Position numbers and translations under genes: made by a program | Shown: one piece after another, positions 10,195 to 64,000 of the stretch | Position numbering within the stretch: position 1 is the stretch's first letter | Layout of the letters: every line of letters begins with the position of its first letter | The notes under the pieces: model-generated | The model's database searches: none | What the model was told of the DNA's origin: nothing | Seen by the model: only the letters and a program-made list of their open reading frames with translations | NCBI GenBank assembly: GCA_965215275.1 | Contig: OZ244044.1 | Location: 1,472,001 to 1,536,000, forward strand | DNA: 64,000 nt | Source: Thermodesulfobacteriota bacterium | GTDB lineage: Bacteria; Desulfobacterota_D; UBA1144; Nemesobacterales; JAJCZQ01 | Direction: 5' to 3'

Positions 10195-10224
10195 TTGACA
10201 TTCATTCAGGATACAAAGTAAAAT
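10195..10224 (+). promoter_or_regulatory. Sigma70-type promoter of S8-like copy 1
   Basis: TTGACA-18nt-TAAAAT; same motif upstream of all six paralogs. Confidence 0.75.
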
Positions 10225-10234
10225 GAAACAAGTT

Positions 10235-12283
10235 ATGAACATCTTATTTCGAATAATACCCCCCCCCTTCCCATCTAAGTCAGTAATTCCCTTTTTCTTT
10301 CTTCTGTGTTTTGTATCTATTGAGGCATATGGCCAGAGTAGTAATTGTAATGCCAATGCAAATATTGATGCTACGCTGACATTGGATGGAGGTAACAAAG
10401 TTGTGACCTTCCAAGCTAATGGAGGACTGAATTACTATCAGATAGACCTGACAGTCCCCGTTATCATAAATATAGATGGAATGGTCAATTCTACCACCTC
10501 CAATAACGTGCAAGCCAGTTTAGAGTTGTGTAACAGCAATGATGATCTGATAACAAGTGTAAGTGGCGGTGGCAGTGCAGATGTAGAATTGGATATTACA
10601 GCAGTTTACCTGATCCCGGGAACTTACTATATTGTTGTGAAAAGCAATGTAGCTGGAGCATCTGATGTTGAAGTTATAAAAGAAGCAGATGCATGTAGGA
10701 CTACTACCAGTTTCAATGATCCCTTATACGGCTGTCAGTGGCATCTGAAAAACACAGGACAGCTCGGGGATATAACTAGCTCTGGAGAAGATATAAACGT
10801 AGAAGGGGTGTGGGATGATAATGTATTCGGTGCTGGAATTAACGTGGCAGTGGTAGATGATGGTATGCAGACGGGTCATGAGGACCTTACTGATAATGTA
10901 AATACCAGCCTGAATCATGATTATTCAGGGAACAATGACGTATACGACCCTTCAAAAGCTCGTGGTACACGTGTATCGGGAGTTATAGCAGCAACAGGTG
11001 ATAACAGCCTTGGAGTAAGAGGCGCAGCACCCCAGGCAGGCATCTATAGTTATAACTTAGCTGGTAATTTAACTTCCGCTAACGCAAAGGATGCTATGAT
11101 CCGTAACAGAGATACAACGGCCGTATCCGTCAATAACTGGGGACCGGAGGACACGTCTGTTCTTATAGAGGCTTCATCAGAGTGGGAGGAAGGAGTGGGA
11201 ATGGGTATAAGTGAAGGGCTTGGTGGTAAAGGGGTATTTTACGTGTGGGCGACTGGAAACAGAGGTGACAACCGCGGTCAGGCTAATTTTGATGAATATT
11301 CCAACTACTACGCAGTAACTGCCGTATGTTCGGTAGATAGAGAAGGAAACAAAAGTTCTTTTTCAGAAGAGGGAGTAAATCTGTGGGTATGTGCTCCAGG
11401 TGAAGATATTACAACTACTGATAATAACGATGGATATATTTTTGATGCAAGTGGAACGGCATATTCAGCAGCGCAGGTTGCAGGTGTGGCGGCACTGATG
11501 AGAGAGGTAAACAGTGATCTTAGCTGGAGAGACCTTAAACTGATACTTGCAGCTTCAGCCCGTAAGAACGACGGTTCTGACACGGGCTGGGAGACAGGGG
11601 CACATAAATACGGTTCTGATACAGAAAGTTATAATTACAACCCTAAGTACGGTTTTGGTGTGGTAGATGCTGAAGCAGCAGTAGGGCTTGCTGAAAGCTG
11701 GACTAATGTTCCAAGGATGAGAACTCAGACCGCTTCTTCTGGAACTATTGATATGGCAATCCCCGACTACAATGACGCAACTTCAACAGACGGAGTACTT
11801 GTTTCCAGACTGACAATACCAGATACTTCTCTTTCTTTTACAGAGTTTGTAGAGGTAGAGCTTAATTTCTCTCACACATACTTACCAGACCTGAACATAC
11901 AGATAACCTCTCCTGACGGTACTGTGTCGCAACTTACTGAGATAGATTCAAACAGCTTTGGTTACACAGATAAAACTCATCGTTTTGGTTCAGCCAGGCA
12001 CCTTGGAGAAGACCCTGCTGGAGAATGGACTTTGAAAATATCTGACACTGTTTCTGACGATACAGGGACGTTACACTCGTGGAGCATTAAAGTCTATGGT
12101 CACAGTAAGGAAGATACAGTACGAAGACCAGGAACACCAGGTGCTGATTCAGGTGGAGGAGGATGTGCGGTCTCCGATCAGAGAGGCGTTATTCCTGATC
12201 TGCTCGGAGCAGTGGCATGTCTGATGCTTATACCTGTATCTGTAGTGATCAGAAGGAAGATAAGGTCTCATATAAAGATGTAA
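10235..12283 (+). CDS. S8/kexin-like pseudoprotease copy 1: signal peptide, PPC-like domain, S8, P domain, GGGGC-TM-RRK tail; in frame
   Basis: QWHL, VAVVDDG, RGTRVSG (His->Arg), SGTAYSAA (Ser->Ala), YGFG, FGSARHLGE P domain; C9 at 10259-10267; start at 10235 by homology to copy 3 (ATG 10223 overlaps the -10 box). Confidence 0.85.
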   Translation: MNILFRIIPPPFPSKSVIPFFFLLCFVSIEAYGQSSNCNANANIDATLTLDGGNKVVTFQANGGLNYYQIDLTVPVIINIDGMVNSTTSNNVQASLELCNSNDDLITSVSGGGSADVELDITAVYLIPGTYYIVVKSNVAGASDVEVIKEADACRTTTSFNDPLYGCQWHLKNTGQLGDITSSGEDINVEGVWDDNVFGAGINVAVVDDGMQTGHEDLTDNVNTSLNHDYSGNNDVYDPSKARGTRVSGVIAATGDNSLGVRGAAPQAGIYSYNLAGNLTSANAKDAMIRNRDTTAVSVNNWGPEDTSVLIEASSEWEEGVGMGISEGLGGKGVFYVWATGNRGDNRGQANFDEYSNYYAVTAVCSVDREGNKSSFSEEGVNLWVCAPGEDITTTDNNDGYIFDASGTAYSAAQVAGVAALMREVNSDLSWRDLKLILAASARKNDGSDTGWETGAHKYGSDTESYNYNPKYGFGVVDAEAAVGLAESWTNVPRMRTQTASSGTIDMAIPDYNDATSTDGVLVSRLTIPDTSLSFTEFVEVELNFSHTYLPDLNIQITSPDGTVSQLTEIDSNSFGYTDKTHRFGSARHLGEDPAGEWTLKISDTVSDDTGTLHSWSIKVYGHSKEDTVRRPGTPGADSGGGGCAVSDQRGVIPDLLGAVACLMLIPVSVVIRRKIRSHIKM

Positions 12284-12407
12284 CAATGCAGTCTCTTTCC
12301 AGAATGTTGAATTAATTAAGATCTTTCCCATCAAAATATCTGCTGGCTGCTTATGAGAGAAGGAACGGTATCTTTCTGTTAAAGTCCTTTTTTCCTTTGG
12401 TTTATAA

Positions 12408-12689
12408 TTATTTTGCCATCCCGGCATATGCAACCGGTCGGGTGTCTCCGAACGTCTTTACAAGTGTTTCAAGGAATTCTTCGGAATGCTCGGAGCAGAA
12501 AAAATAGGTTAGAACAGTGTTACCGGACTTGGTTACGCTTAATACCTGGTAGTGGCGGCTGCAAAGGTCTTTGTTGCACATTACACATTCTTTTATCGCC
12601 AGTCTTTCTCCTTCAAGAGTACATCTTTCCCCGTCCTCTCCTATGTTGTCACACTGATATACCTCAACGGATATTTTCCTTTTTGACAT
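12408..12689 (-). CDS. Small Cys/His-rich hypothetical protein, possibly zinc-binding
   Basis: CVMC, CSRH and CSEH motifs; AGGAG RBS upstream. Confidence 0.65.
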   Translation of the reverse strand: MSKRKISVEVYQCDNIGEDGERCTLEGERLAIKECVMCNKDLCSRHYQVLSVTKSGNTVLTYFFCSEHSEEFLETLVKTFGDTRPVAYAGMAK

Positions 12690-13100
12690 CTATTCTCTCC
12701 TTATAGTTTTATATACACTCCATTTTTTACATTAATAAGTATAGGAATTATAAAGATTGATTTACAAGAAATAAAATTTTTAATAATAAGCATTAGGAAA
12801 ATCAGAATATCCATAACGGATATAAATCTGTATCGGGTGGAGCAGTTAAAATGGGGAAAAGACTCCCGGTGGGTGCTATGGGTATTTTAAAATCAAAAGA
12901 ACAAGAGGAACTTTGCACTCAGAACGGTAAAGGTATTGTCGTCGGACGATCTTTATAGTTCTCACAAGCATATAAGATTGACGGCGATATGATCAGTCTG
13001 AATAACAGCGGTATTTAACTGATTTGCAATCCAACGAGATTTAGTAGACAGTATTACCCGCACAAATTATATTTTGTAAAATTTATTAAGCTATATAAGA

Positions 13101-14069
13101 ATGATCTCCACCAATCAAGCTATTAACGGGACTCTGAAGTTTTTATACAATCGGATCACGAAAAGGCCCACACTTGTAAATCTTGAAGTAACAAAGCTGT
13201 GTAACGCTACGTGTGATTTTTGTGATTACTGGCAGACAAAGCACGAGGAAAGAATTACCGATTACAGACCCGTAATTAAAAAAATTAATCCTCTGGTGAC
13301 GGTAATTACCGGCGGGGAGCCAATGTTAAGAAAGGACCTTCCTGATATTGTCAGGCAGATCAAAGAGTGTTCAATGTTTATTTTTGTCTCTATGGTAACA
13401 AAAGGGGACCTGTTGACCGTTGATAAGGCGAAAGAACTTTTTGAGGCAGGTATGGACCAGATAGCAGTTTCTCTGGATTTTCCCGGCAAGACCCACGATA
13501 CGTATCGCGGGATACCTGGTCTCTGGGACCATATTTCTGAATTGATGCCTAAACTTGCTGAAGTTTTTCCAAAGAAAACAGTGGTTTTAAATACAATAAT
13601 TATGGAGGATAACCTTGATCAGGTCGTAAAGATAGCAGAGAAAGCAAGAGAGTGGGGTGTCAGGATATCTTTTAGTTCTTACTCCGTGATGAAAACAAAC
13701 AACGAAGGTCATTTTATCAGGAAAAAGCAGTTACAGAAAGTTAAGGACGTGATCGATGAACTTATAGAACTGAGGCAACAGTGGAAGGGAACGATTCTGT
13801 CCACGGAATATTATTTAAGGATGGTACCTGCTTATTTTGAAAACGGTGGAGTTCCAGACTGCTTTGCTGGTGTAAGTCACCTTCAGGTTACCCCGAGTGG
13901 GCATTTAAAAAGGTGTTCGGAAATGCCCGTTGTTGCACGCTACGATGAATACAGCCCTGAACTGTTTGACAAAACAAAGTGTGAGGCATGCTGGTACAGT
14001 TGCAGAGGTGAGACACAGAGCCCTGCCAACGTTAGAAGAATGCTTGAATACATGGGGGTCTGGCTTTAA
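13101..14069 (+). CDS. Radical SAM protein with SPASM/twitch-like C-terminus
   Basis: CNATCDFC (CxxxCxxC), TGGEP, C-terminal CFAG...C...CEACWYSC. Confidence 0.9.
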   Translation: MISTNQAINGTLKFLYNRITKRPTLVNLEVTKLCNATCDFCDYWQTKHEERITDYRPVIKKINPLVTVITGGEPMLRKDLPDIVRQIKECSMFIFVSMVTKGDLLTVDKAKELFEAGMDQIAVSLDFPGKTHDTYRGIPGLWDHISELMPKLAEVFPKKTVVLNTIIMEDNLDQVVKIAEKAREWGVRISFSSYSVMKTNNEGHFIRKKQLQKVKDVIDELIELRQQWKGTILSTEYYLRMVPAYFENGGVPDCFAGVSHLQVTPSGHLKRCSEMPVVARYDEYSPELFDKTKCEACWYSCRGETQSPANVRRMLEYMGVWL

Positions 14070-14276
14070 ACTCATTTGACGGGTTTTAACGGTTGCGTTC
14101 CTGATGCTGTAAACTTAACACAGCAGGGAAGTTATCAGCGATTTTACCTGCCTGTTTCTTATAGACGTTGCCATCTGAATACCATCTGTTGTGAAGATTG
14201 ATTTTTCAGAAGTCGTACCGCTTGGTGTAGCAGAGAGGTTCTTGTTTCTATTAAAGGGAATTATATTTATACACGC

Positions 14277-14414
14277 TTGACATTCGTTCATAATACAAAG
14301 TAAAATGAAAGGGTTATGAGTATGAACGTATCTTTTAGAGTAATACGCCTTTTTAATGATAGTGAAAGTAAATCTTTCAAAGTGAAATACAGTTTAACTT
14401 ACCTTTTATTATAA
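14277..14414 (+). pseudogene. Orphan family promoter plus remnant 5' end of a copy-1/3-type gene
   Basis: TTGACA-18nt-TAAAAT at 14277-14306; ATG 14316 reads MSMNVSFRVI (compare MNISFRII of copy 3), then diverges and stops after 32 codons. Confidence 0.55.
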
Positions 14415-14437
14415 ACATGCATAGATATTGTTCATAC

Positions 14438-14466
14438 TTGACATTACGGCGGAACGGAAGTAAAAT
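14438..14466 (+). promoter_or_regulatory. Sigma70-type promoter of copy 2
   Basis: TTGACA-17nt-TAAAAT; ATG 9 nt downstream at 14476. Confidence 0.75.
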
Positions 14467-14561
14467 ATCGGCATCATGAAAAATCCAAACGTAAAAAAGC
14501 GTAGTTCTATTACCCCCCCCCGTGTATACCCGACCTTTCAGCTGTATACGGGTATCCTGCA

Positions 14562-17500
14562 ATGACAATGCTTAAGTTCATATCCCCCCCCCCGTCTAAG
14601 TCCATACTTCCCCTTGTCCTTTTCCTTCTGTGCGTAATCACCGTGGTTGCAAGTGGACAGGGCAGTGAAAAGGACCCGTTCTCCGAATGCAGGGGTATCA
14701 GTGCAGACGCGGAAGATCCGCTGTACGGATGTCAGTGGCATCTGAGGAACACTGGACAGCTTAGTTATTCCGGAAAGAGGACAACTGCGGGAGAGGATAT
14801 AAACGTGGAGGGAGTGTGGAACGACGGGATATCCGGTGCCGGGATCAATATAGCAGTGGCAGGTGACGGCGTCGACCTTTCCCATGAGGACCTTTCTGCG
14901 AACGTCCGTTCCGGACCGAACCACAGTTTTTCTGGAAAAAACAATTCCGGAAAGAACAGTTTTGAGAAAAACAATTCAGAAAGCGGTGATCTTTCCGATA
15001 GTTCATCCCTTACCGGAACGCGAGCAGCAGGAGTAATAGCAGCAACTGGATATAACGGACTGGGAGTAAGAGGAGTTGCACCTGGTGCTAGTATATACAG
15101 TAATGAGTTAACAGAAGATCTCAGTGAAACAGAAGCAATGGTGCGTAATAAAGAAATAACTGCAGTATCCGTTAACGACCGGGGATCTGAGGAGGGAGTT
15201 TTATTACAGGGGGCTTCGGCTGAGTGGGAAGAGGGAGTGGAAGAGGGTATAAGGGAAGGGTTTTACGGCAGGGGAATATTTTACGTCCTGGGAGCAGGGG
15301 ACGGACATGAGAGCGGAGATCAGGCTAATTTTTCTGAATATTCCAACTATTACGGTGTAACGGCGGTATGTTCAACTGACGGCTTTGGAAAGAAGAGTAT
15401 ATTTTCAGAAGAGGGAGTAAATCTCTGGGTATGTGCACCTGGTTCTGATATTGTGACCACTGATAACGACGACGGCTACGCCGTGGCTTCCGGAACATTT
15501 CTTTCAGCTTCACAGGTTGGAGGAGTGGCAGCACTGCTGAGAGAAATAAATGGAAACCTGAGCTGGAGGGATATAAAGCTTATACTTGCGGGTTCGGCAC
15601 GGCAGAACGATCTTTCTGACATGAGCTGGGAGACAGGAGCATTTAAATACGGTTCTGATACTGAAAGATATAATTATAACCCTAAGTATGGTTTTGGTGT
15701 GGTAGACGCGGAGGCGGCCGCAGAGCTTGCCGGAAGCTGGAAAGGAGTGGGAGAAATGAGGACCGTTACAGCTTCCTCGGATAATGAACTGACGATCCCT
15801 GATGGAGAAGGAGAGGCGGACGGGGTCCTTACCTCCAGACTTATGATTTCGGACCTGGAGGAAATATTTACGGAGTTCGTTGAGGTAGAACTCGTTCTCT
15901 CGTGTGACTGCCTGCAGGACCTCAATATACGGATAACCTCTCCTTCCGGGACAGTATCGGAACTTGTGCGGGAGTCTGCCAGTGAGTTTGTAAGGGGATC
16001 TTCGAATGAAGAAAACGACTGCGTCAGTTACCTGGGGAAAAAACATCGTTTCGGTTCGGCAAGACACCTCGGGGAAGACCCTTCCGGAGAATGGACCCTT
16101 AAGATATATAATACTGCTTCCGGAGATGAAGAAGATACAGAAAATACCGTTACCCTGCACTCATGGAGCATCAGGGTATACGGGCACGGGAAGGGGGATA
16201 CTTTAACGGACTTTGGCGGGGAGATCACTGCCAAGGCTTTAACTTTGGGTAATGTTCCTGGTGGTAGGCTGACCTGGACGCAACATAAGCTGGTAAACGC
16301 AAGGTTATTCGAGGCAGCCGGAGGCAGGCCGCCGTATACTTACAGTTTAGCTCCTTTACCTCCTGGATTGAATTTTAACGGAACCACCAGAATTATAAAC
16401 GGGAGACCGACCGCTGCAGGTGACACCGACGTTCAGTATACGGCAAGAGACGCAAATAACGATACGGCACGGAGTGACTTCGTTATAAGGATAACGGCGA
16501 ACGCCGCGCCGGTTTTTGGCAGCAAGACGGTTGCTGCTCAGGTGTACACGGCAAGGAAAGCAATAGAACCATTGGAACTTCCCGAGGCAACGGGAGGGGA
16601 TGGAACCTTGACTTACAATATAAGTGGTAACGTCAGGGGTATAGGGTTGAACTTTAACCGTAACACAAGGATACTGAGCGGAATGCCCACCAGTGTTACG
16701 CCTGGTATTACAGCCGTTTATACCGCCACTGACGCAGATGGAGATACTGCCGAACTGAGGTTCAATATACGGGTAAGACATCAGAACGACATACCGACCT
16801 TTGGCAGTCAGACGGTAGATGATCAGAATTGGGTTAACGGCAGTGCAGTAAGGCTAACGCTGCCTCGTGCAAGAAACGGGAACGGAACGTTAATTTACAG
16901 TTTAGGGCTTGCCGTTAACATGAATGCATTACTTGCCGGACTGGATTTTAACAGAAACACCAGAGTGTTAAGCGGAACGCTCAGGATACCCCCGGCGGCA
17001 ATACCTCCTGCTGGGATTACACACAGATATACGGTAACGGACAGTGATAACGATACTCATGAAAGTGATTCTGACAGTTTGACCTTCGGGATCACTGTAT
17101 CAGCGGACGCAATGCCGACCTTTAGCAGTGAGACGATAGATGATAAGGAATACATAGCAGGAAGTCAGATAAAGCCGGTAACGCTGCCAGTGGCAACATC
17201 GGGGAATACTCCGTTAACCTACGGTATAACCCCTGCTTTGCCTGATGGACTGGACTTTGATCCTGCTACCCGGGTGCTGAGCGGAACACCGACCACTGCG
17301 ATGTCTCAGACTACCTATACATATACAGTAACGGACGTAGATGACGACCCGGCTGAGTTAACGTTTGATATCACTGTATCAGCGGACGCAATGCCGACCT
17401 TCGGCGGTGCGACGATAGAAGACAGGACGACCGTTAACGGCGTTACGGCAGTAATGGAAACACTGCCTCTTGCAACAGGAGGGAACGGAACGCTGACTTA

Positions 17501-18140
17501 CAGTTTAACTGATGCCGGTTCAAATGCTTTGAATTTATTTGCCGGACTGGACTTTGATGAAAACACCCGGGTGCTGAGCGGAACACCCGATATCGGTTCA
17601 GCGTTCCTTGATCTGCTTCCCGTAACCGAGACCTATACGTGGATGGTAGCGGACGAAGATGAAGACATGGACGAGTTGACGTTCAGTATAATTATAGAAG
17701 CAGACAGCGAACCTGACCTCAGCGGTGAGACGATAGATGATCAGGTGTACACGGGGACCCCTGTAACTCTTCCTGAGGCAACGGGAGGGAACCCGCCGTT
17801 AAGATACAGTATAATGCCTCGTTTACCAGATGGATTGAGTTTTGATCCTGCTACCAGAAGGATAAGCGGGACACCGACTGCTGCAGCACCTGAGAATACT
17901 TACACGTACACGGTAACGGACAGCAATGACGACGTGGACGTGTTGACTTTCAGGCTCAGTGCAGTTCCGCCACGAGGACCGATGACGTCAGATACCGGTT
18001 CAGGCGGAGGTGGAGGAGGATGTGCCGTCTCGGATCAGAGCAGCGTTGCTTCTGATATCTTTGGAGCAGTGGCATTTCTGATGCTCATACCCGTGTCAGT
18101 ATTTATCAGAAGGAGAAGAAGACCTCATATAAAGACATAG
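14562..18140 (+). CDS. S8-like pseudoprotease copy 2 with six Ig-like (He_PIG-type) repeats and GGGGC-TM tail; probable true start 14476 is out of frame at the C9 tract
   Basis: IAVAGDG (Asp->Gly), TGTRAAG (His->Thr), SGTFLSAS (Ser->Phe); repeats of LPxATGG...LP.GL.F...TR.LSGTP; C9 at 14513-14521, C10 at 14584-14593. Confidence 0.85.
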   Translation: MTMLKFISPPPSKSILPLVLFLLCVITVVASGQGSEKDPFSECRGISADAEDPLYGCQWHLRNTGQLSYSGKRTTAGEDINVEGVWNDGISGAGINIAVAGDGVDLSHEDLSANVRSGPNHSFSGKNNSGKNSFEKNNSESGDLSDSSSLTGTRAAGVIAATGYNGLGVRGVAPGASIYSNELTEDLSETEAMVRNKEITAVSVNDRGSEEGVLLQGASAEWEEGVEEGIREGFYGRGIFYVLGAGDGHESGDQANFSEYSNYYGVTAVCSTDGFGKKSIFSEEGVNLWVCAPGSDIVTTDNDDGYAVASGTFLSASQVGGVAALLREINGNLSWRDIKLILAGSARQNDLSDMSWETGAFKYGSDTERYNYNPKYGFGVVDAEAAAELAGSWKGVGEMRTVTASSDNELTIPDGEGEADGVLTSRLMISDLEEIFTEFVEVELVLSCDCLQDLNIRITSPSGTVSELVRESASEFVRGSSNEENDCVSYLGKKHRFGSARHLGEDPSGEWTLKIYNTASGDEEDTENTVTLHSWSIRVYGHGKGDTLTDFGGEITAKALTLGNVPGGRLTWTQHKLVNARLFEAAGGRPPYTYSLAPLPPGLNFNGTTRIINGRPTAAGDTDVQYTARDANNDTARSDFVIRITANAAPVFGSKTVAAQVYTARKAIEPLELPEATGGDGTLTYNISGNVRGIGLNFNRNTRILSGMPTSVTPGITAVYTATDADGDTAELRFNIRVRHQNDIPTFGSQTVDDQNWVNGSAVRLTLPRARNGNGTLIYSLGLAVNMNALLAGLDFNRNTRVLSGTLRIPPAAIPPAGITHRYTVTDSDNDTHESDSDSLTFGITVSADAMPTFSSETIDDKEYIAGSQIKPVTLPVATSGNTPLTYGITPALPDGLDFDPATRVLSGTPTTAMSQTTYTYTVTDVDDDPAELTFDITVSADAMPTFGGATIEDRTTVNGVTAVMETLPLATGGNGTLTYSLTDAGSNALNLFAGLDFDENTRVLSGTPDIGSAFLDLLPVTETYTWMVADEDEDMDELTFSIIIEADSEPDLSGETIDDQVYTGTPVTLPEATGGNPPLRYSIMPRLPDGLSFDPATRRISGTPTAAAPENTYTYTVTDSNDDVDVLTFRLSAVPPRGPMTSDTGSGGGGGGCAVSDQSSVASDIFGAVAFLMLIPVSVFIRRRRRPHIKT

Positions 18141-18200
18141 TAATGTGGTCCTTTAAAGAGCATTTCTGAGAGAGAATTGGAGTCTGCTGCTAATAAAAAA

Positions 18201-18608: not shown

Positions 18609-18762
18609 TTTCTTTATTAAAGGGGATTTTGTCGTTAGATCTGTACTATAACTACTCTCTTGGTTGTGAAAACTCTAACTTATCCCCGTTAGAAGCGTTG
18701 TATTTGCCACGGGATCAGCGGTGGGTGCAGCCTTTTAAATGATCGTTAATAAATAGTTTCTC

Positions 18763-22437: not shown

Positions 22438-22467
22438 TTGACATTCGTTCAGGGTACAAAGTAAAAT
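22438..22467 (+). promoter_or_regulatory. Sigma70-type promoter of copy 3
   Basis: TTGACA-18nt-TAAAAT; ATG 9 nt downstream at 22477. Confidence 0.75.
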
Positions 22468-22476
22468 AACAAAGCT

Positions 22477-24195
22477 ATGAACATCTCATTTAGAATAATA
22501 CCCCCCCCATATAAGTCATTAATATCCTTTCTCCTTCTTCTGTGCCTTGTGTCCATTGAGGCATATGGACAGATCAATAACTGTGACACCAGTACTACCG
22601 GTTTCAATGATCCCTTATACGGCTGTCAGTGGCATCTGAAAAACACGGGACAGCTTGGGGCTGTAACTGCCTCTGGAGAAGATATAAACGTAGAAGGGGT
22701 CTGGGACGATAACAGGTTCGGTGCCGGAATTAACGTGGCGGTGGTGGATGACGGTATGCAGACGGGTCATGAGGACCTTTCTGATAATGTAAATAACAGC
22801 CTTAACCATGATTATTCAGGAGGCAGTGACGTATACGACCCTTCAAAAGCTCGCGGAACGCGTGTATCGGGAGTTATAGCAGCAGCGGGAGATAACGGTA
22901 TTGGAGCAAGAGGAGCGGCACCACGGGCAGGCATCTACAGTTATAACCTGGCCGGTAATTTAAACAGCGCTAACGCAAAGGACGCCATGACCCGTAACAG
23001 AGATACAACGGCTGTATCCGTCAACAACTGGGGACCGAATGACCTGCCTCTTCTCAGGGAGGCTTCATCAGAGTGGGAAGAGGGAGTGGAGACGGGTATA
23101 AGTGAAGGGTTTGGTGGTAAGGGGGTATTTTATGTATGGGCGGCCGGGGACGGAGATAAAAGGGCAGATCAGGCTAATTTTGATGAGTATTCCAACTACT
23201 ACGCAGTAACCACCGTATGTTCGGTGGATGGAGAAGGAAACAAGAGCTCTTTTTCAGAGGAGGGAGTAAATCTGTGGGTATGTGCTCCAGGTGAAGATAT
23301 TACAACTACTGACAATAACGATGGATATATTTTTGATGCGAGTGGAACGGCATATTCAGCAGCGCAGGTTGCAGGTGTGGCGGCACTGATGAGAGAGGTA
23401 AACGGAGACCTTGGCTGGAGGGACATAAAGCTTATACTTGCAGCTTCAGCCCGTAAGAACGACGGTTCCGACACGAACTGGGAGACGGGAGCACGGAAAT
23501 ACGGTTCTGATACAGAGAGTTATAATTACAATCCTAGGTACGGTTTCGGCGTGGCAGATGCCGACGCGGCAGTAAAGCTTGCTGAAAGCTGGACTAACGT
23601 TCCAGGGATGAGAACTCAGACCGTTTCCTCGGGAACTGTTGATATGGAAATCCCCATCCACAGCAATGGAGCAGACGGAGAAGTTACTGCCAGACTGACC
23701 ATACCGGATAATGAGTTTTTTACAGAATTTGTAGAGATAGAACTTGATTCCACTTACGGTTACTTTCCAAGTTTAGCTATACAGATAGCGTCCCCTGACG
23801 GTACTGTGTCTGAACTTACCGAGGAGTATTATGCAGGAGCTTTCTCAATTATAAATACCACTCCACTCACTGCAAGCGACTTTATTTACACCGACAGAAC
23901 TCATCGTTTTGGTTCAGCCAGACACCTTGGAGAAGACCCTGCCGGAGAATGGACCTTGAAGATAACTAACACTGATCTGTTTTCTTCAGGCACAGCAACT
24001 TTACACTCGTGGAGCATTAAAGTCTATGGTCACAGTAAGGAAGATACAGTTAGTGATACGTTTGGAGGAGGATGTGTGCTCTCAGATCAGAACGAAGCTG
24101 TTTCTGATCTGCTCACAGCAGTGGCATCTCTGATGCTTATACCCTTATCAGCAGCGATCAGAAAGAAGGTAAGGTCTCATATAAACACCTGGTAA
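22477..24195 (+). CDS. S8-like pseudoprotease copy 3 (minimal form: signal, S8, P domain, GGGC-TM tail); in frame
   Basis: VAVVDDG, RGTRVSG (His->Arg), AAGDG (oxyanion Asn->Asp), SGTAYSAA (Ser->Ala); C8 at 22501-22508. Confidence 0.85.
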   Translation: MNISFRIIPPPYKSLISFLLLLCLVSIEAYGQINNCDTSTTGFNDPLYGCQWHLKNTGQLGAVTASGEDINVEGVWDDNRFGAGINVAVVDDGMQTGHEDLSDNVNNSLNHDYSGGSDVYDPSKARGTRVSGVIAAAGDNGIGARGAAPRAGIYSYNLAGNLNSANAKDAMTRNRDTTAVSVNNWGPNDLPLLREASSEWEEGVETGISEGFGGKGVFYVWAAGDGDKRADQANFDEYSNYYAVTTVCSVDGEGNKSSFSEEGVNLWVCAPGEDITTTDNNDGYIFDASGTAYSAAQVAGVAALMREVNGDLGWRDIKLILAASARKNDGSDTNWETGARKYGSDTESYNYNPRYGFGVADADAAVKLAESWTNVPGMRTQTVSSGTVDMEIPIHSNGADGEVTARLTIPDNEFFTEFVEIELDSTYGYFPSLAIQIASPDGTVSELTEEYYAGAFSIINTTPLTASDFIYTDRTHRFGSARHLGEDPAGEWTLKITNTDLFSSGTATLHSWSIKVYGHSKEDTVSDTFGGGCVLSDQNEAVSDLLTAVASLMLIPLSAAIRKKVRSHINTW

Positions 24196-24495: not shown

Positions 24496-24525
24496 TTGAC
24501 ATTCGTTCATAATACGAAGTAAAAT
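24496..24525 (+). promoter_or_regulatory. Sigma70-type promoter of copy 4
   Basis: TTGACA-18nt-TAAAAT; ATG 9 nt downstream at 24535. Confidence 0.75.
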
Positions 24526-24644
24526 ATCAGTGTTATGAAAAATTTCATGAAAAATTCAAACATAAAAACAAAAACACGTAGTTCCATTACCCCCCCCCGT
24601 GTATACCTGACCTTTCAGCCTGGTATAAGTGTTTTTTAAGAACA

Positions 24645-27600
24645 ATGTTTAAGATAATACCCCCCCCATCTAAGTCATTACTAACTTTAGTCTTTATTCT
24701 TCTGTGTATAATGGTAATAGCTGCAAAAGGGCAGAGCAGCCTGGAAGAAACATTATCTGAATGCAGAGGTAACAGTGCAGACGTGGAAGATCCGTTATAC
24801 GGATGTCAGTGGCATCTGAAGAACACGGGGCAGTTTATTTATTCAGGAAAGAGAATAACATCAGGAGAAGATATAAACGTAGAGGGAGTGTGGAACGAAG
24901 ACGTATACGGTTCTGGAATTAACGTAGCAATAGTAAGTGACGGTATCGACCTTTCACATGAGGACCTTTCTGCAAACGTCCGTTCCGGACTGAACTATGA
25001 TCTGTCTGACAGTTCATCTTTTAGTGGGACACGAGCGGCAGGAGTTATTGCAGCAACTGGATATAACGGACTGGGAGTAAGAGGAACAGCACCGGGTGCG
25101 AGTATATACAGTTACAGGTTATCCGGTGATCTCAGTGAAGCGGACGCGGTGGTCCGTAATAAGGAAATAACCGCAGTATCGGTTAACGGCCGGGGATCTG
25201 AGGACGGAGCTTTTTTTCAGGAGGCTTCATCTTCCTGGGAAGAAGGAGTGGAACTTGGAATAAGTAAAGGGTTTTATGGAAAAGGTGTGTTTTACGTCCG
25301 GGGAGCAGGGGACGGGCATGAAAGCGGAGATCAGGCTAATTTTAATGAATATTCCAGCTATTACGGAGTAACAGCCGTTTGTTCAACTGACGGTTATGGA
25401 AAAAAGAGTATTTTTTCAGAAGAGGGAGTAAATCTATGGGTATGTGCACCTGGTTCTGATATTGTAACCACAGATAACAACAACGATTACGTTGTAACTT
25501 CCGGAACATTTCTATCAGCTTCACAGGTCGGAGGAGTGGCAGCACTGCTGAGAGAGATAAACGGAGATCTGAGCTGGAGGGATATAAAGCTTATACTTGC
25601 GGGTTCAGCACGGCAGAACGATATTTTTGACCTTAGCTGGGAGACTGGAGCGGTAAAATACGGTTCTGACGTGGAAAGATATAATTATAATCCTAAGTAT
25701 GGTTTTGGCGTGGTAGACGCAGAAGCAGCTGCAGAACTTGCAGGAAGCTGGAAAGGCGTTGGAGAAATGAGGACCGTTACCGCCTTTTCAGATAATGAGA
25801 TAACAATTCCTTATGGAGAAGGAAATGGAGAAGGAGAGGCAGACGGGGTACTTGTCTCCAGACTTATGATCCCGGACGTGGAGGAAATATTTACGGAATT
25901 CGTTGAAGTTGAACTTGTTCTCTCGTGTGACTGCTTACAGGACCTCAATATAAAGCTAACCTCTCCTTCCGGGACAGTGTCTGAACTTGTAAGGGAGTTT
26001 TCAGGGGAGGAAGAAGACGCTGATATCAGTTACCTGAGAAGAACACATCGTTTCGGGTCGGCAAGACACCTCGGAGAAGACCCTGCCGGAGAATGGAACC
26101 TTAAAATATCCGATACTGCTTCCGGAGATGAAGAAGATACAGAAAACACTGTTACCTTACACTCATGGAGCATTAAGGTATACGGGCATGTTTTTTTACA
26201 GGATTTTGGCAAGGAGATCATTACCAAGGCTTTCAGCTTGGGAAGTATCTCTAATAAAACTTACAGAGAAGGAGTTCAGATAACACCATTAGTGCTGCCT
26301 GAGGCAACTGGAACTAATCTGTCAATTACTTACAGTTTAAGTCCTGCCCCACCTGCCGGATTGACCTTTGACAAAACCACCCGAACGATAAGCGGAACAC
26401 CAACTGCTGTAGGCAGGACAAGGCATAATTATAGGGCAAGCATTCCTGGCCAACAACTCAATAGAAACTTTCATATCACGGTAGAAAATAACCCACCCAC
26501 CTTCGGCAGTGAGACTATCCCAAAGAAGAGATATATTCAAGGGACAAATGTAGGTCTTCCAGTAACGCTGCCTGCTGCTACCGGAGGAAATGGAACTTTA
26601 AATTACAGTTTAACCCCTTCATTACCAACTGGATTGGAATTTAATCCTGCTACCCGAGTGATAAGTGGAACTCCAACTGATATTATACAAACTCCTGGTC
26701 GACTTTATACATATAAGGTAACGGACAGTGATGGAGATATAGATAGTTTGAGTTTCCGTATTGAAATATTCAGGGACCAAACGCCAACTTTTAGTGGTGT
26801 GATGGTAGATGATCAGGTGTATACAGCAGGGGTTCAGATAACACCATTAGAGCTGCCTAGGTCAATATTAGGGAATAGCCCATCACACAGTATTACTCCT
26901 GAATTACCTGATGGATTGATTATTGAGACAGAGACGGGCGGTGACGGTGGAATGAGAAGAATAATCATCATACGCGGAACACCAACTACAGCAATGCCTG
27001 AGACTGAGTATACATGGAGAGTAAGAGACACAGATGGAGATACGGACGAGTTAACGTTCAGTATTACTGTATTAGCAGAACCAAACACAGAACCAACCTT
27101 CGGCAGTGAAACTATAGATAACAAGGTGTATATAAACGGAGAGGCAGTAATGGAAACACTGCCTGAAGCAACGTCAGGGAATGCACCATTAACTTACAGT
27201 TTAACTAATATTGGTTCAACTGCTTTGACTTTAGCCGTGGACTTTGATAAGAACACCAGAGTGTTAAGTGGAACACCCAATGTTAATGTACACCTACTTC
27301 CTATAACTCGTGCATATACATATAAAGTAACAGACAATGATGGAGATACAGCAGAGATAACGTTCAGTATAACAATAGAAGAAGACAGCGAGCCGGACTT
27401 CAGCGTGACGACGATAGAAGATCAGGTGTACATGGGGAGATCAATAAGGTTGCCGGTAGCAACGGGAGGGAATGCACCGTTAGTATACAGTATAACGCCT
27501 CCCTTACCTCCTGGGTTGAGATTGGACAGAGACACAGGGGTAATAAGCGGGACGCCCGCGAGTGCGTCGTCTGAGAGGACCTACACGTACACGGTAATGG

Positions 27601-27842
27601 ACAGGGACGGAGACATTAAAGAGTTGACCTTCAGGTTCAGTGCAGAGGTTCCTTCTACTCCAGGACCAGGACCAACAAGAACGTCAGGTAGTGATCCAGG
27701 CGGAGGTGGAGGAGGATGTGCCGTCTCGGATCAGAGCAGCGCCGTTTCTGATATTCCTGGAGTAATGGCATGTCTGATACTTATACCCGTGTCGGTATTG
27801 ATCAGAAGGAAGGGAAGAGCTCGGATAAGGACCTGGCAATGA
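24645..27842 (+). CDS. S8-like pseudoprotease copy 4 with five Ig-like repeats and GGGGC-TM tail; probable true start 24535 is out of frame at the C9 tract
   Basis: VAIVSDG (Asp->Ser), SGTRAAG (His->Ser), SGTFLSAS (Ser->Phe); C9 at 24590-24598, C8 at 24660-24667. Confidence 0.85.
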   Translation: MFKIIPPPSKSLLTLVFILLCIMVIAAKGQSSLEETLSECRGNSADVEDPLYGCQWHLKNTGQFIYSGKRITSGEDINVEGVWNEDVYGSGINVAIVSDGIDLSHEDLSANVRSGLNYDLSDSSSFSGTRAAGVIAATGYNGLGVRGTAPGASIYSYRLSGDLSEADAVVRNKEITAVSVNGRGSEDGAFFQEASSSWEEGVELGISKGFYGKGVFYVRGAGDGHESGDQANFNEYSSYYGVTAVCSTDGYGKKSIFSEEGVNLWVCAPGSDIVTTDNNNDYVVTSGTFLSASQVGGVAALLREINGDLSWRDIKLILAGSARQNDIFDLSWETGAVKYGSDVERYNYNPKYGFGVVDAEAAAELAGSWKGVGEMRTVTAFSDNEITIPYGEGNGEGEADGVLVSRLMIPDVEEIFTEFVEVELVLSCDCLQDLNIKLTSPSGTVSELVREFSGEEEDADISYLRRTHRFGSARHLGEDPAGEWNLKISDTASGDEEDTENTVTLHSWSIKVYGHVFLQDFGKEIITKAFSLGSISNKTYREGVQITPLVLPEATGTNLSITYSLSPAPPAGLTFDKTTRTISGTPTAVGRTRHNYRASIPGQQLNRNFHITVENNPPTFGSETIPKKRYIQGTNVGLPVTLPAATGGNGTLNYSLTPSLPTGLEFNPATRVISGTPTDIIQTPGRLYTYKVTDSDGDIDSLSFRIEIFRDQTPTFSGVMVDDQVYTAGVQITPLELPRSILGNSPSHSITPELPDGLIIETETGGDGGMRRIIIIRGTPTTAMPETEYTWRVRDTDGDTDELTFSITVLAEPNTEPTFGSETIDNKVYINGEAVMETLPEATSGNAPLTYSLTNIGSTALTLAVDFDKNTRVLSGTPNVNVHLLPITRAYTYKVTDNDGDTAEITFSITIEEDSEPDFSVTTIEDQVYMGRSIRLPVATGGNAPLVYSITPPLPPGLRLDRDTGVISGTPASASSERTYTYTVMDRDGDIKELTFRFSAEVPSTPGPGPTRTSGSDPGGGGGGCAVSDQSSAVSDIPGVMACLILIPVSVLIRRKGRARIRTWQ

Positions 27843-33310: not shown

Positions 33311-33339
33311 TTGACATTACACTAAAGCAGAAGTAAGAT
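33311..33339 (+). promoter_or_regulatory. Sigma70-type promoter of copy 5
   Basis: TTGACA-17nt-TAAGAT; ATG 9 nt downstream at 33349. Confidence 0.7.
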
Positions 33340-33348: not shown

Positions 33349-35933
33349 ATGAAAGATTTCATAAGAGGATCAAATGTAAAAACACGTAGTTCCATACCTC
33401 CCCCCCCCCCCGTGTATACCTTGCCTTTCAGTAGGGTACGGGTACACTGTAACGACAATGCTTAGGTTCATATCCCCCCCCCCCATATAAGTTAGTTCTT
33501 TCCCTGGTCTTTTTTCTTCTGTGCGTAATACCCGCAGCCGCGATGGTCCGTAACGGGGAAACGGCGTCGGTGTCCGTTGACGACCGGGGACAGGAGGACG
33601 GACCTTTTCTTCAGGAGGCTTCGGCTTCGTGGGAAGAAGGAGTGGAAGCAGGAATAAGAGAAGGGTTTTATGGAAAAGGAACGTTTTACGTCCGGGGAGC
33701 AGGGGACGGACATGAAAAAGGAGATCAGGCTAATTTTTCTGAATATTCCAATTACTACGGAGTAACTGCCGTTTGTTCAACGGACGGTTTTGGAAAAAAG
33801 AGTTTCTTTTCAGAAGAGGGAGTAAACCTGTGGGTGTGTGCACCTGGTTCTGATATCGTGACCACAGATAACAACAACGGTTACGTTGTAACTTCCGGAA
33901 CGTTCCTGTCAGCTTCACAGGTTGCAGGAGTGGCAGCACTGCTGAGAGAGGTTAACGGAGAACTGAGCTGGAGGGATATAAAGCTTATACTTGCGGGTTC
34001 AGCACGGCAGAACGATTTTTTTGACCCTGGCTGGGAGACTGGAGCTGTTAAATACGGTTCTGACGTGGAAAGATATAATTATAGTCCCAGGTATGGTTTT
34101 GGCGTGGTGGACGCAGAAGCAGCCGCAGAACTTGCAAAAAGCTGGAAAGGCGTAGGAGAAATGAGGACCATTACAGCTTCTTCAGATAATGAACTGACGA
34201 TCCCTGATGGAGAAGAAAATGGAGATGGAGAAGCGGACGGGGTCCTTGTCTCCGGACTTGTGATACCGGACGTGGAGGAAATATTTACGGAATTCGTTGA
34301 AGTTGAACTTGTTTTTTCTCATGACCGCTTGCAGGACCTTGATATACAGATAACCTCTCCTTCCGGGACAGTATCGGAACTTGTAAGGGAGTTTTCAGGG
34401 GAAGAAGACACCAGCGTCAGTTACCTGAGAAGAACACATCGTTTCGGGTCGGCAAGACACCTTGGGGAAGCCCCTTCCGGAGAATGGATTTTAAAAATAT
34501 CTGATACTGCTTCCGGAGATGGAGAAGATAGAGAAAATACGGGGACCTTGCACTCCTGGAACATTAAGGTATACGGGCACGGGAAGGGGGATCTTTTAAC
34601 GGACCCAGTCAGTGAGACGGGTCCTAAACATCATTATCTAAGTTTTGGTGGTCTGACAGAAGAAGATCATGTATTTACAGTAGGAGTTATGATAAGTCCA
34701 TTTCGTCCACCTCAGGTAGTTGATTCAGGGGCTGGAGCAGTAAGATACAGTTTAACTCCTGCTTTACCTGCCGGATTGATGTTTAATGTTGTTACCCTAC
34801 AGGTAACAGGAACGCCAACTACTCCGATGTCTGATACTGAGTACACATATACTGCTATGGACAGAGGTGGGGATAGTGATAGTATAACGTTCAATATCAG
34901 GGTAAAGGGTATAGCTGGTGCTCCGAGTTTTGGGAATGAGTCAATCCCTGGTCAGATATACATTCAAGGGACAACGGCAAACCTTCCGGTAACACTGCCT
35001 TCTGCAACATCAGGGGATACTCCGTTAACTTACAGTATAGCACCTGAGTTACCAGCTGGATTGGACTTTGCTTCTGATACCCGAGTAATAAGTGGCACAC
35101 CTTCTACTGCAACGTCTGAGGCTGATTACACATATACGGTTACTGATATAGATGGAGACACTGTTGAGTTAATGTTCGGGATCACTATATTAGCAGACGT
35201 AATGCCAACCTTTAGCGGTGAGACAATAGATGATAAGGAGTACATAGCAGGGAGTCTAATAACACCAGTAACGCTGCCTGCAGCAACTGGAGGTAATACT
35301 CCATTAACTTACAGTTTAACTCCTGCTTTACCAACTGGATTGAACTTTAACACAGCTACCCGAGTAATAAGTGGAACACCCACTACTGCAATGAGCAGGA
35401 ATACTTATACATATACGGTAACAGACATAAATGGAGATACTGTTAAGTTAATGTTCGGGATCACTATATTAGCTGACAGCATGCCAGACTTCGGCGGTGA
35501 GACAATAGATGATAAGGAGTACATAGCAGGGAGTCTAATAACACCAGTAACGCTGCCTGCAGCAACTGGAGGTAATGCTCCATTAACTTACAGTTTAACT
35601 CCTGCTTTACCAACTGGATTGAACTTTAATCCTGATACCCGAGTGATAAGTGGCACACCTTCTACTGCAACGTCTGAGGCTGATTACACATATACGGTTA
35701 CTGATATAGATGGAGACACGGATGAGAGAACGTTCAGTATAATAATAGAGGTTTCTTCTGCTCCGCCACCACAAGGACCAAGAACGTCAGGTACTGATTC
35801 AGGTGGAGGAGGATGTGCCGTCTCCGGTCAGAGCGGCGTTGTTCCTGATCTGCTCGGAGCAGTGGCGTGTCTGATACTTATACCCGTGTCTGTAATTATC
35901 AGAAGGAATAGAATAGCTCAGATAAAGACTTAG
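33349..35933 (+). CDS. S8-like pseudoprotease copy 5, frameshifted at both poly-C tracts, with an in-frame deletion of the N-terminal half of the S8 domain and four Ig-like repeats
   Basis: C12 at 33400-33411 and C11 at 33474-33484; removing one C from each joins ATG 33349, the signal peptide (KLVLSLVFFLLCVIPAAA) and the track ORF 33543..35933. Confidence 0.75.
35074..35719 (+). repeat. 279-bp-period near-identical Ig-domain repeats in copy 5
   Basis: 35220-35350 recurs at 35499-35629 (+279); 35074-35161 recurs at 35632-35719 (+558). Confidence 0.9.
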
Positions 35934-61495: not shown

Positions 61496-61569
61496 ATCAG
61501 ATACTGCTGATGAATGGTCCGTGTATCCTGAATATCTTTATCATTGAAAAACAGAGAAAGAAGTTATAC

Positions 61570-61598
61570 TTGACATTACATCAGAACGGAAGTAAAAT
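61570..61598 (+). promoter_or_regulatory. Sigma70-type promoter of copy 6
   Basis: TTGACA-17nt-TAAAAT. Confidence 0.75.
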
Positions 61599-61608
61599 AT
61601 AAAAATGT

Positions 61609-64000
61609 ATGAAAAACATGATGGACTCTATCCCCCCCCCCCCCGTCAATATAGTAGTTTAACGGGCAGTTCCCGCCGGAACGGCAGGAACCTTGTACTT
61701 TCCCTTGTCCTTTTTCTTCTGTGCATAATGATCACTGTTGCAGAGGGACAGGACAGCGTAAATGATCCGTTCTCCGAATGCAGGGTTATCAGTGCAGACG
61801 CGGAAGATCCGCTGTACGGATGTCAGTGGCATCTGAAGAACACGGGGCAGCTTGGTTTTTCCGGAAAAGCAGTAACAGCAGGAGAAGATATAAACGTAGA
61901 GGGAGTGTGGAACGAAGACGTATATGGTTCTGGAATTAACGTAGCAATAGTAAGTGACGGTATTGACCTTTCACATGAGGACCTTTCTGCTAAGGTCCGT
62001 TCCGGACTGAACTGGAGTTATTTTGAAAGAAATAATTCTGAAGAGAACAGTTCTGAAAAATATAATTCAGAAAGAGATGATCATTCAGACGGTTCATCCT
62101 TTACCGGAACACGAGCGGCAGGAGTAATTGCAGCAACTGGATATAACGGACTGGGAGTAAGAGGAACAGCACCTGGTGCGAGTATATACAGTTACAGGTT
62201 ATCCGGTGATCTCAGTGAAGCTGACGCAATGGTCCGTAATAAAGAAATAACCGCTGTATCGGTTAACGGCCGGGTATCTGAGGACGGAGCTTTTTTTCAG
62301 GAGGCTTCATCTGTCTGGGAAGAAGGATTGGATACGGGAATAAGGGAAGGGTTTTATGGGAAAGGTGTGTTTTACGTCTGGGGAGCAGGGGACGGTCACG
62401 AGAATAACGATCAGGCTAATTTTAATGAATATTCCAGCTATTACGGAGTAACAGCCGTTTGTTCAACGGACGGCTTTGGAAAGAAGAGTATATTTTCAGA
62501 AGAGGGAGTAAATCTCTGGGTATGTGCACCTGGTTCTGATATTGTGACCACAGATAACAACAACGATTACGTTGTAACATCCGGAACTGTCCTTTCAGCT
62601 TCACAGGTTGGAGGAGTGGCTGCACTGCTGAGAGAGGTTAATGGAAATCTGAGCTGGAGGGATATAAAGCTTATACTTGCGGGTTCAGCAAGGCAGAACG
62701 ACGTTTCTGACATGAGCTGGGAGACTGGAGCGGTTAAATACGGTTCTGACGTGGAAAGATATAATTATAATCCTAAGTATGGTTTTGGCGTGGTAGACGC
62801 AGAAGCAGCCGCAGAGCTTGCCGGAAGCTGGAAAGGCATCGGAGAGATGAGGACCATTACAGCTTCTTCCGATAATGAACTGACAATTCCTGATGGAGAA
62901 GGAGAAGCAGATGGAATACTTACCTCCACACTTGTGATACCGGACGTGGAGGAAATATTTACGGAATTCGTTGAGGTAGAACTTGTTTTTTCTCATGACC
63001 GCTTGCAGGACCTTGATATAAAAATAACCTCTCCTTCCGGGACAGTTTCTGAACTTGTCCGGGAATTTTCAGGTGAGGAAGAAGACGCTGAGATCAGTTA
63101 TGTAAGAAGAACACATCGTTTCGGGTCGGCTAAACACCTCGGAGAAGACCCTTCCGGTGAATGGACCCTTGATATATCCGATACTGCTTCCGGAGATGAA
63201 GCAGATGAAGAAAATACTTTTACCTTACACTCCTGGAGCATTAAGGTATACGGGAATTTTTATCAAGGACCTGGCAGGGAGATAACTACTAAAGCTTTAA
63301 ATTGGGGCGGACAGACAGTTCAGGATCAGGTGTACAGAGTAGGAACTCAGATAGCACCGTTACAGCTGCCTGAGGCGACCGGGGCAGAAGGAATAACGTA
63401 CAGTATGACACCTGATTTACCTGCTGGGCTGGAGTTTAACGATACCACCCGGGTTATAAGCGGAACCCCAACTAAATCGCAGTCTAATGAACGTTATCAA
63501 ATTGTTGCCAGAGACGAAAATGGAAACGTGAAGGGTTTAGCGTTCCATATAAGGGTAAGGTTCCGTAACTCCACAATACCGAGTTTCAGCGATACCATCC
63601 CGGATCAGAACTACGTAACGGGGAGAGAAATAACGCCACTGGTGTTCCCTAGTGCAACGGGAGGGGATGGTCAGTTAAGGTACACTTTTAACGGCACTTT
63701 AACTAACTTACCAAATGGATTGAGACTTACCAGTGATCCGTTCAGGATAAGAGGAACACCAGGTAGTGGTAGTGCGGGGACAAGTACCTGGCAATATACC
63801 GCTACTGACTCAGACGGGGATACTGCTACACTTGAGTTCAGGATAAGGATAAAAGCTGCAGCTGACGTTCCGAGCTTCGGCGGTCAGATGATAGATGATA
63901 AGTTTTATACGGCAATGGTTCAAATATCACCATTCACGCTACCTCTTGCAACGCAAGGAACTGGAATTACACTCAGGTTAACCCCTAATTTACCTGATGG
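61609..64000 (+). CDS. S8-like pseudoprotease copy 6 (runs off the window; absent from the ORF track), at least three Ig-like repeats
   Basis: LVLSLVLFLLCIM signal, DPLYGCQWHL, VAIVSDG, TGTRAAG, SGTVLSAS (Ser->Val), P domain; C13 at 61632-61644 puts the homologous ATG 61609 out of frame, though ATG 61605 is in frame. Confidence 0.85.

Follow-up and report, generated by a model that had tools for sequence, protein, structure and literature searches.

In this work we describe a repertoire of kexin-like proteins, predicted to be displayed on the cell surface, that is encoded in the genome of an uncultured bacterium and has six members in a 64,000-nucleotide stretch of contig OZ244044.1 (assembly GCA_965215275.1, positions 1,472,001 to 1,536,000; hereafter the window). 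The family comprises 57 genes encoding a subtilisin-like peptidase S8 domain followed by a P domain, 50 of which have a broken catalytic triad, and we put a probability of roughly 0.7 on the reading that the poly-C tracts at their 5' ends are heritable, slipped-strand ON/OFF switches for predicted surface adhesins or decoys. The repertoire is real and apparently undescribed; it works in the manner of opa-type phase variation, and its new elements are the scaffold, the scale and a leader with two tracts. A more elaborate version, which we advance only tentatively, is an antigenic-variation system derived from a laterally acquired furin-like protease, with some 50 recombining heads that each have their own poly-C switch. 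A two-tract, two-promoter gate in over half of them would give rare, near-exclusive expression without a regulator, catalytic loss would have been coupled to gain of the switch, and a sister lineage would have arrived independently at a repertoire of RTX lipoproteins with poly-G tracts in promoter spacers.

The first-pass annotation of this DNA had proposed six paralogs on the forward strand at five sites, and this layout is borne out, with the genes (p44 to p49; Table 1) covering 24.6% of the window. As it had also claimed, all six share a promoter of the form TTGACA-17/18-TA(A/G)(A/G)AT and 5' C tracts, and encode an S8 domain followed by a P domain (Pfam Peptidase_S8 and P_proprotein, the order of the S8B fold) with a broken triad. 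Other particulars required amendment: the variable immunoglobulin (Ig)-like stalk ascribed to every copy is made of He_PIG repeats in four and is missing from those at 10235 and 22477; the tail of GGGC, transmembrane helix and basic residues ends the five complete copies, the sixth running past the window to 65426; and the start assigned to that last copy, ATG 61609, occupies the family-conserved position and is out of frame, ATG 61605 being in frame instead. A search of the whole genome, for which it had suggested profiles (Peptidase_S8, P_proprotein, He_PIG), places these six genes among 57 copies, of which seven keep Asp-His-Ser (D-H-S). At the D/H/N/S positions of triad and oxyanion hole the window copies read D-R-N-A (10235), G-T-D-F (14476), D-R-D-A (22477), S-S-D-F (24535) and S-T-D-V (61605), while the S8 domain of the copy at 33349 (p48) has lost its initial ~115 residues, and with them the Asp and His sites, and has Phe in place of Ser. 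None of the six thus combines Asp-His-Ser with the oxyanion Asn of an S8B enzyme, a combination present in six of the 57 genome-wide.

The window belongs to a single-contig genome of 1,990,023 bases (42.5% G+C, 99.87% complete) that is likely a member of the Dadabacteria, judging from one gene, homoserine dehydrogenase, whose named homologues at 61-78% identity are assigned to Thermodesulfobacteriota, Desulfobacterota, Deltaproteobacteria and Candidatus Dadabacteria. The 57 kexin-like cores found in it by tblastn lie 43 on the forward and 14 on the reverse strand, and their open frames make up 8.8% of the genome. Two further members possess the family promoter, tract, signal peptide and tail with PPC and/or He_PIG domains only and no S8 core. 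Besides the six D-H-N-S copies and p14, which has D-H-S with an oxyanion Asp, the 50 broken copies comprise ten D-R-D-S, eight D/N-R-x-A and twenty-nine S/G-T/S-D-F/V sequences, plus p17, p43 and p48; the catalytic substitutions are set by class rather than random, and D-H-S is kept in 86 of 87 distant homologues. From these residues the broken-triad copies would be expected to have lost proteolysis, with the qualification that the ten D-R-D-S copies retain the nucleophile.

The fold has remained under purifying selection after catalytic loss. Over the core, the ratio of nonsynonymous to synonymous substitution rates (dN/dS; pairwise Nei-Gojobori, p43 and p48 excluded and one pair with dS <= 0.02 dropped) is 0.41 among active copies (15 pairs) and 0.39, 0.41 and 0.28 among the dead classes (45, 28 and 405 of 406 pairs); the estimate suffers from non-independence of the pairs and from gene conversion, and the values are still far from the ratio near 1 that the first-pass annotation had named as the mark of decay. 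The predicted structure of the p47 core (24645) has a predicted local distance difference test score (pLDDT) of 87 in AlphaFold and a template-modeling (TM) score of 0.83 to Kex2/furin. Other assemblies contain 15 close relatives at 69-97% identity to single paralogs, with active and dead classes both represented and orthologous dead copies retained at 87-97% identity; these relatives are multi-copy and mostly dead rather than single-copy enzymes with an intact triad.

Poly-C tracts follow the catalytic state closely. A 5' tract is present in 49 of the 50 dead copies, as against one of the seven D-H-S copies and none of the six fully intact ones (Fisher p 1e-6, which overstates the association because paralogs are not independent). 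The dead exception, p17, has a G11 before its start and a G13 inside the S8 domain, the tract of p14 lies in an upstream frame, and two of the fully intact copies have internal tracts. Across the genome C/G runs number 78 at length 6, 0 at 7, 6 at 8, 68 at 9, 32 at 10 and 33 at 11 or more; the 133 runs of at least 9 are the most among 98 genomes of the class that are at least 90% complete (130 in genome G011, 113 in G025), and 78 of the 139 runs of at least 8 are 5' tracts of this family. Among distant homologues, 0 of 78 loci have a C/G run of at least 8 near the gene start.

The promoter and start pattern occurs 51 times in the genome, 49 times at S8 paralogs and twice at the S8-less members, and places the conserved ATG 8-10 nt past the -10 box, nine nt also being the commonest distance genome-wide in a crude tally of 16 cases. 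A double leader is found in 28 copies, in the order P1, ATG1, tract, linker, ATG2, tract and signal peptide. Its 46-50-nt linker is open in the ATG2 frame in 28/28 copies (24 distinct sequences; shuffled linkers are open in 32%, a test weakened by shared ancestry), and is stopped in frame 1 in 25/28 and in frame 2 in 28/28. No Shine-Dalgarno motif precedes ATG2 in any of the 28; the linker resembles a second promoter (P2), 9 nt ahead of ATG2, that comes close to consensus in p4 (TTGACC-17-TACAAT) and is degenerate in the majority of copies. Because the linker also reads as a promoter, the double leader looks like a tandem duplication of the promoter-tract cassette, and ATG1 appears to be a real start since p13 and p22 join the ATG1 leader straight to the signal peptide.

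Tract length determines whether these starts are in frame. Five of 49 dead copies are in frame from the conserved start (p27, p33, p40, p44 and p46), or 11 if ATG2 or an alternative ATG at +6 is allowed; the window is rich in ON states (5/6 in frame vs 6/43 elsewhere, p = 0.0013), an enrichment noticed post hoc for which we offer no explanation. When tracts flanked by at least 20 identical bases on each side are paired, 24 of 38 pairs differ in length, some of which assembly homopolymer errors could mimic. In p31/p55 (73+623 identical nt) and p33/p2 (22+1395 nt), a difference of one C flips the frame. The p23 orthologue in another assembly (P0032) stops directly after its internal poly-C, in a different frame, and among gene calls elsewhere P0003 begins 60 codons inside the p44 frame and P0008 is full length like p40; such starts are weak evidence of state, because the caller also chose an internal start for the in-frame p47. 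These comparisons support tracts that change length faster than their flanks. The predicted state of a single locus is set by tract length alone, as phase variation is defined in the accessible text of PMC11868660. Leader anatomy and the comparison between copies together make a switch likely. Of the proposal of a new, ON/OFF-switched and recombining set, the dead scaffold, purifying selection, recombination and frame-setting tracts have held up, and 'new system' overstates a switch that resembles known repeat-driven multigene phase variation. Contig variants over window positions 9300-28600 (+C and +CC at 24589, +C at 24659) were discarded as instances of switching, their flanks being shared with paralogs.

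Recombination among copies is evident in the largest class (29 copies), where the nearest neighbour shifts along the core, blocks of 0% divergence stand beside blocks of 3-16%, and neighbouring-site incompatibility is 0.314 vs 0.470 +/- 0.008 in 300 permutations. In p45, window positions 16071-16882 are 99.3% identical to p35 and 97.7% to p9, and the core upstream is at least 9% from p35. Such block sharing is not an assembly artefact, because independent contigs over this interval show 2-3x single-copy depth or more in three runs. Stalks contain 0 to about 14 Ig-like repeats by a crude motif count.

The tail is invariant in all 23 aligned copies (GGGC, SxQ, LxLIPxS and a basic end). It differs from MYXO-CTERM, whose helix contains neither Pro nor charge, in an invariant Pro within the helix and a score under the cut-off, and from JDVT-CTERM, which has about one client in a genome, in having no DP motif nine residues after the Cys, about 60 tails in the genome and no NCBIfam hit. 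Because it falls below all catalogued models and similar tails also terminate unrelated proteins at 7 loci in relatives, we regard the tail as an older signal of the lineage to which the S8 family became attached. A single CPBP/Rce1-like protease is encoded in the genome, directly upstream of p24; it has EExxxR and HxxxN motifs and best matches below cut-off to myxosortase models, and a gspC-K operon for a type II secretion system (T2SS) is encoded as well; with a Cys, helix and basic cluster in the tail, these are the components of Cys-CTERM/myxosortase-type sorting. In Myxococcus xanthus, MrtX cleaves MYXO-CTERM in a Cys-dependent manner, with lipidation and then T2SS delivery as the proposed route in the accessible part of PMC11980579, and by this model the tails of the proteins described here are probably cleaved off and the proteins anchored through a lipid, not through the helix. 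Sorting by GlyGly-CTERM and rhombosortase was rejected, rhomboid (PF01694) being absent from this 99.9% complete genome in a search with a positive control in 14 of 14.

In the mechanism that we propose, initiation would be near-leaderless, at the ATG 8-10 nt past the -10 box of the near-consensus family promoter, and tract length sets the frame of that ATG relative to the signal peptide, with most copies out of frame in the assembly. Double-leader copies would need both tracts in frame for full output, with weak output possible from P2 or by re-initiation after a stop 2-5 nt before ATG2. As copies exchange sequence blocks and vary their stalks from 0 to 14 repeats, each cell would display few of ~50 heads, hedging against host recognition or phage, while the six tract-free intact copies may provide protease constitutively. 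Lateral transfer likely introduced the family in the form of an active enzyme, with stepwise loss of catalysis thereafter. Ig stalks, the S8-less members, the remodelled cleft of the largest class and the switch together point to variable surface display of binding heads, as adhesin or coat. No hypervariable face was established on the heads: variability is concentrated in a small number of loops, and members of a class differ rather little in the cleft.

Several observations weigh against this reading, and some of them lend themselves to other explanations. The function of the heads is a prediction, and the host association of the lineage is likewise something that we infer; the tail scores below every catalogued sorting model (best MYXO-CTERM, TIGR03901, at 17.9 bits vs a cut-off of 20), and the adjacency of the CPBP protease to p24 may be chance, because 30 of 40 relatives have homologues (the six small f6 genomes have none). 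Intact, open MutS (868 aa) and MutL (617 aa) count here too and rule out missing mismatch repair, and NucS scores below the cut-off in the genome. In-frame counts are not significantly different from a 1/3 or 1/9 chance, the C8 at 22501 is identical in contigs of 4/4 runs (two studies, one of them maybe the source), and no indel is listed at 10259, 14513 or 14584, three sites of uncertain coverage; contigs drop rare variants. Phases are also lopsided, and because 20 of 28 second tracts exceed the in-frame length by exactly one base they fit ribosomal or polymerase slippage as well. If tracts were fixed in the DNA and read through by such slippage, all copies would be made at a low level in each cell, as the preponderance of out-of-frame copies and the invariance at 22501 would allow and as the known +1 frameshifting at CCC-C proline codons near a start codon makes conceivable. 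We consider this improbable, since the opposite phase prevails in copies with a single tract (12 of the 20 whose promoter was located), near-identical copies have tracts of anything from 8 to 13 bases, and the tracts of the sister genome sit in promoter spacers, out of reach of translational slippage. Decay of an expanded protease family into pseudogenes by birth and death, with tracts as hotspots hitchhiking on a duplicated leader, would account for the 38-44 of 49 dead copies that are out of frame and for relic cassettes. Some decay is real, because 6 of 57 copies are broken past the 5' leader (in p9, p14, p23, p36 and p57 no single frame extends to the tail, and in p17 the frame shifts at the G13) and p48 is missing a large segment. 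As a general explanation it is quite improbable: dead classes and active copies have equal dN/dS, the tail is reached by 52 of 57 open frames, substitutions are class-fixed, dead orthologues persist at 87-97% identity and promoters are kept in 48 of 50.

The tract lengths were read from one single-contig assembly, long reads usually err in homopolymers, and homopolymer accuracy could be checked against other contigs for two tracts only, which leaves room for real tracts whose lengths, and hence ON/OFF calls and paralog differences, are consensus errors in genes that are all intact and constitutive. Both checked tracts agreed, however (22501 in 4/4 runs and the C9 at 18289 in the one run whose spanning contig was listed), gene calls in other assemblies begin past the tract in most dead orthologues (weak evidence), and errors leave the position of tracts at gene starts and the absence of 7-mers unexplained; we hold this explanation to be very improbable. 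A doubtful possibility that nevertheless deserves more credit than these, and is compatible with switching, is that the dead heads act as substrate traps, binding basic peptides (such as host antimicrobial or furin-substrate peptides) or regulating the six active paralogs, instead of being adhesins or coat proteins. The cores are acidic, and the equivalents of the acidic S1 and calcium-site residues of furin, which we take to be D258, D301, D306 and E331, are largely kept in the D-R-x-A class (D306 in 8/8), whose heads may accordingly trap basic peptides. On the other side, the largest class lacks D306 in 29/29, has W254>R in 21/29 and has the nucleophile replaced by bulky Phe or Val, an S8 core is missing altogether from two members, and active and distant homologues are about as acidic. 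We retain switched surface display as the preferred reading.

Among known systems, the closest in operation are the opa genes of Neisseria, which are likewise dispersed surface paralogs, recombining and each switched by a repeat in the signal-peptide region, the repeat there being a pentamer vs poly-C here. One Neisseria strain has 11 phase-variable opa genes according to the accessible text of PMC11868660, as against 57 copies here; in place of the opa beta-barrel this family has a dead kexin head on an Ig stalk, 28 of its copies have two tracts in series, and its switching is predicted from sequence in an uncultured non-pathogen. The best sequence and structure matches are Kex2/furin and Aeromonas sobria ASP (E 2.5e-41; TM 0.83 for Kex2/furin and 0.78 for ASP), from which the family differs in its broken triad (50/57) and, in short-leader copies, in having no propeptide-length segment between signal peptide and core. 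Clostridioides difficile CspC shares an S8 fold with a broken triad, its NCBIfam model NF040808 matching weakly at 18-23 bits vs a cut-off of 675. CspC reportedly has a signalling or binding role and is said to be a single-copy spore protein; we know of no kexin P domain, Ig stalk, sorting tail or tract in it. A lineage-specific expansion of S8B kexins is found in the PRT1 family of Pneumocystis carinii, with 39 copies vs 0-1 in sister species and many predicted at the surface by a C-terminal lipid anchor (PMC4764891); these are fungal, anchored by glycosylphosphatidylinositol and of independent origin, and the accessible part of that source mentions neither catalytic loss nor a homopolymer switch. 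Cys-CTERM/myxosortase sorting, as set out in the accessible parts of bioRxiv 10.1101/2023.06.07.544157 and PMC11980579, resembles the present case in the tail of Cys, helix and basic cluster, in having dozens of clients in one genome, in the T2SS and in a CPBP protease bearing EExxxR and HxxxN. The family tail is unlike it in its invariant helix Pro and SxQ and in lacking the DP of JDVT, nearly all clients here belong to one paralog family, and the local protease falls below all Mrt cut-offs. A search for a Chlamydia pneumoniae poly-C paralog family, a possible parallel, found no relevant paper.

Regarding origin, the family core is unmatched at E <= 1e-30 in 119 other genomes of the class, the sole same-genus genome among them being 80% complete. 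Scans of Joint Genome Institute metagenomes by DNA pattern and by protein gave no match and no orthologous DNA from other strains, and a protein atlas search returned generic S8+P clusters only. We found no published description of the family in the accessible literature; genome papers and supplements on sponge Dadabacteria outside it may mention an S8 expansion. A FastTree tree was built from the 57 cores, 10 close relatives and 15 distant homologues; in it a long branch unites the 67 close sequences as a single clade, with a support of only 0.68, and class order inside the clade is weakly supported. For these two reasons a single acquisition followed by stepwise loss of catalysis stays a likely rather than a tested reading. 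The nearest active relatives are in metagenome-assembled genomes of Dehalococcoidia, Binatia and acidimicrobials, including Poriferisodalis, Spongiisocius and Aldehydirespirator, which we take to be sponge-associated names. As a separate observation, two f8 relatives encode a different, triad-intact S8+P protein at ~34% identity with a lipoprotein-like start (L002 in G033 and L003 in G036).

The sister genome (G011) presents a parallel, transcription-level contingency repertoire. It has 48 promoters with poly-G in the spacer between -35 and -10, mostly G9 giving a 15 nt spacer, and at 8 of 15 sampled tract loci the downstream gene belongs to a single lipoprotein family that has collagen-like and RTX repeats (Pfam on 2/8). 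Tracts also number 113 in G025 and 75 in G075.

Repeat-driven phase variation has been described mostly in pathogens, and the word 'symbiont' occurs 0 times in the accessible text of one review (PMC11868660). If our reading is true, a 2-Mb genome in which switchable dead furin-like heads take up ~9% of the DNA would represent pathogen-style surface hedging in a marine, probably host-associated lineage, and large contingency repertoires would recur in this group rather than being a pathogen speciality. The family furthermore offers a natural series for the stepwise catalytic loss of a protease fold under selection. Its double-tract leader may function as a genetic AND gate, and its cysteine sorting tag, which matches no catalogued model, has a candidate enzyme. 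Tract lengths can be read from long-read metagenomes without culture, which would give a handle on the evasion of, or engagement with, host recognition and phage in such bacteria.

Table 1. Coordinates of family members, their leaders and related loci. Plain positions are those of the window; prefixed positions are those of the named genome or locus.
Feature	Position	Strand	Description
Family promoter P1 of p44	10195..10224	+	-35 TTGACA, 18 nt, -10 TAAAAT
p44	10235..12283	+	in frame; signal peptide, weak PPC-like domain, dead S8 (D-R-A), P domain, no Ig stalk, Cys tail
C9 tract of p44	10259..10267	+	in signal-peptide codons
Extra family promoter upstream of p45	14277..14306	+	no tract; relic cassette
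Promoter P1 of p45	14438..14466	+	
Double-tract leader of p45	14476..14593	+	ATG1 14476 (out of frame), C9 14513-14521, linker P2 14530-14558, ATG2 14568 (in frame), C10 14584-14593
p45	14568..18140	+	dead S8 (G-T-F), P domain, 5-6 He_PIG repeats, Cys tail
Promoter P1 of p46	22438..22467	+	
p46	22477..24195	+	in frame; C8 22501-22508; dead S8 (D-R-A), P domain, no stalk, Cys tail
Promoter P1 of p47	24496..24525	+	
Double-tract leader of p47	24535..24667	+	ATG1 24535 (out of frame), C9 24590-24598, ATG2 24645 (in frame), C8 24660-24667
p47	24645..27842	+	dead S8 (S-S-F), P domain, 4-5 He_PIG repeats, Cys tail
Promoter P1 of p48	33311..33339	+	
Double-tract leader of p48	33349..33484	+	ATG1 33349, C12 33400-33411, ATG2 33458, C11 33474-33484; both starts out of frame
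p48	33458..35933	+	signal peptide joined to truncated S8, P domain, 4 He_PIG repeats, Cys tail
Promoter P1 of p49	61570..61598	+	
p49	61605..64000, on to 65426	+	C13 61632-61644; dead S8 (S-T-V), P domain, Ig stalk
S8-less family members	G000:C1:627251-628606 and 1649073-1650050		
Leader-only relic	G000:C1:633462-633700		
CPBP protease	G000:C1:680809-681450 (L089:1477-2121)	-	directly upstream of p24
Poly-G spacer promoters, G011 examples	L146:1559-3010, L150, L152, L156, L158, L160, L164, L168		
TPR-like poly-C family	G000:C1:19539, 20737, 31545, 1068992, 1899949, 1901573, 1914729, 1964984		
Other loci with ATG then C9-C26	G000:C1:384592, 496990, 570916, 734754, 828763, 834720, 899109, 1001504, 1401695, 1814694		

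Tracts are also present outside the S8+P family. A second paralog family, TPR-repeat-like by eye, has poly-C ~290 nt into the frame in several copies, and at other contingency loci an ATG is followed by C9-C26 within a few codons (Table 1). Within the window, positions 18273-18570 hold a short relic resembling a DNA methyltransferase N-terminus (DPPF motif by eye, no Pfam match), with the C9 at 18289 and out of frame. An AT-rich islet at 44255-46993 (30-36% G+C) carries an IS1595-family transposase and a methyltransferase-like gene, and a 252-aa open reading frame at 28637-29395 has no Pfam match, its nearest atlas clusters being phage hypothetical proteins (score 0.87, a lead only). Elsewhere in the genome there are several near-identical 1.3-kb repeats and long perfect 21-bp tandem arrays at G000:C1:1927067-1927751 and 1966401-1966643.

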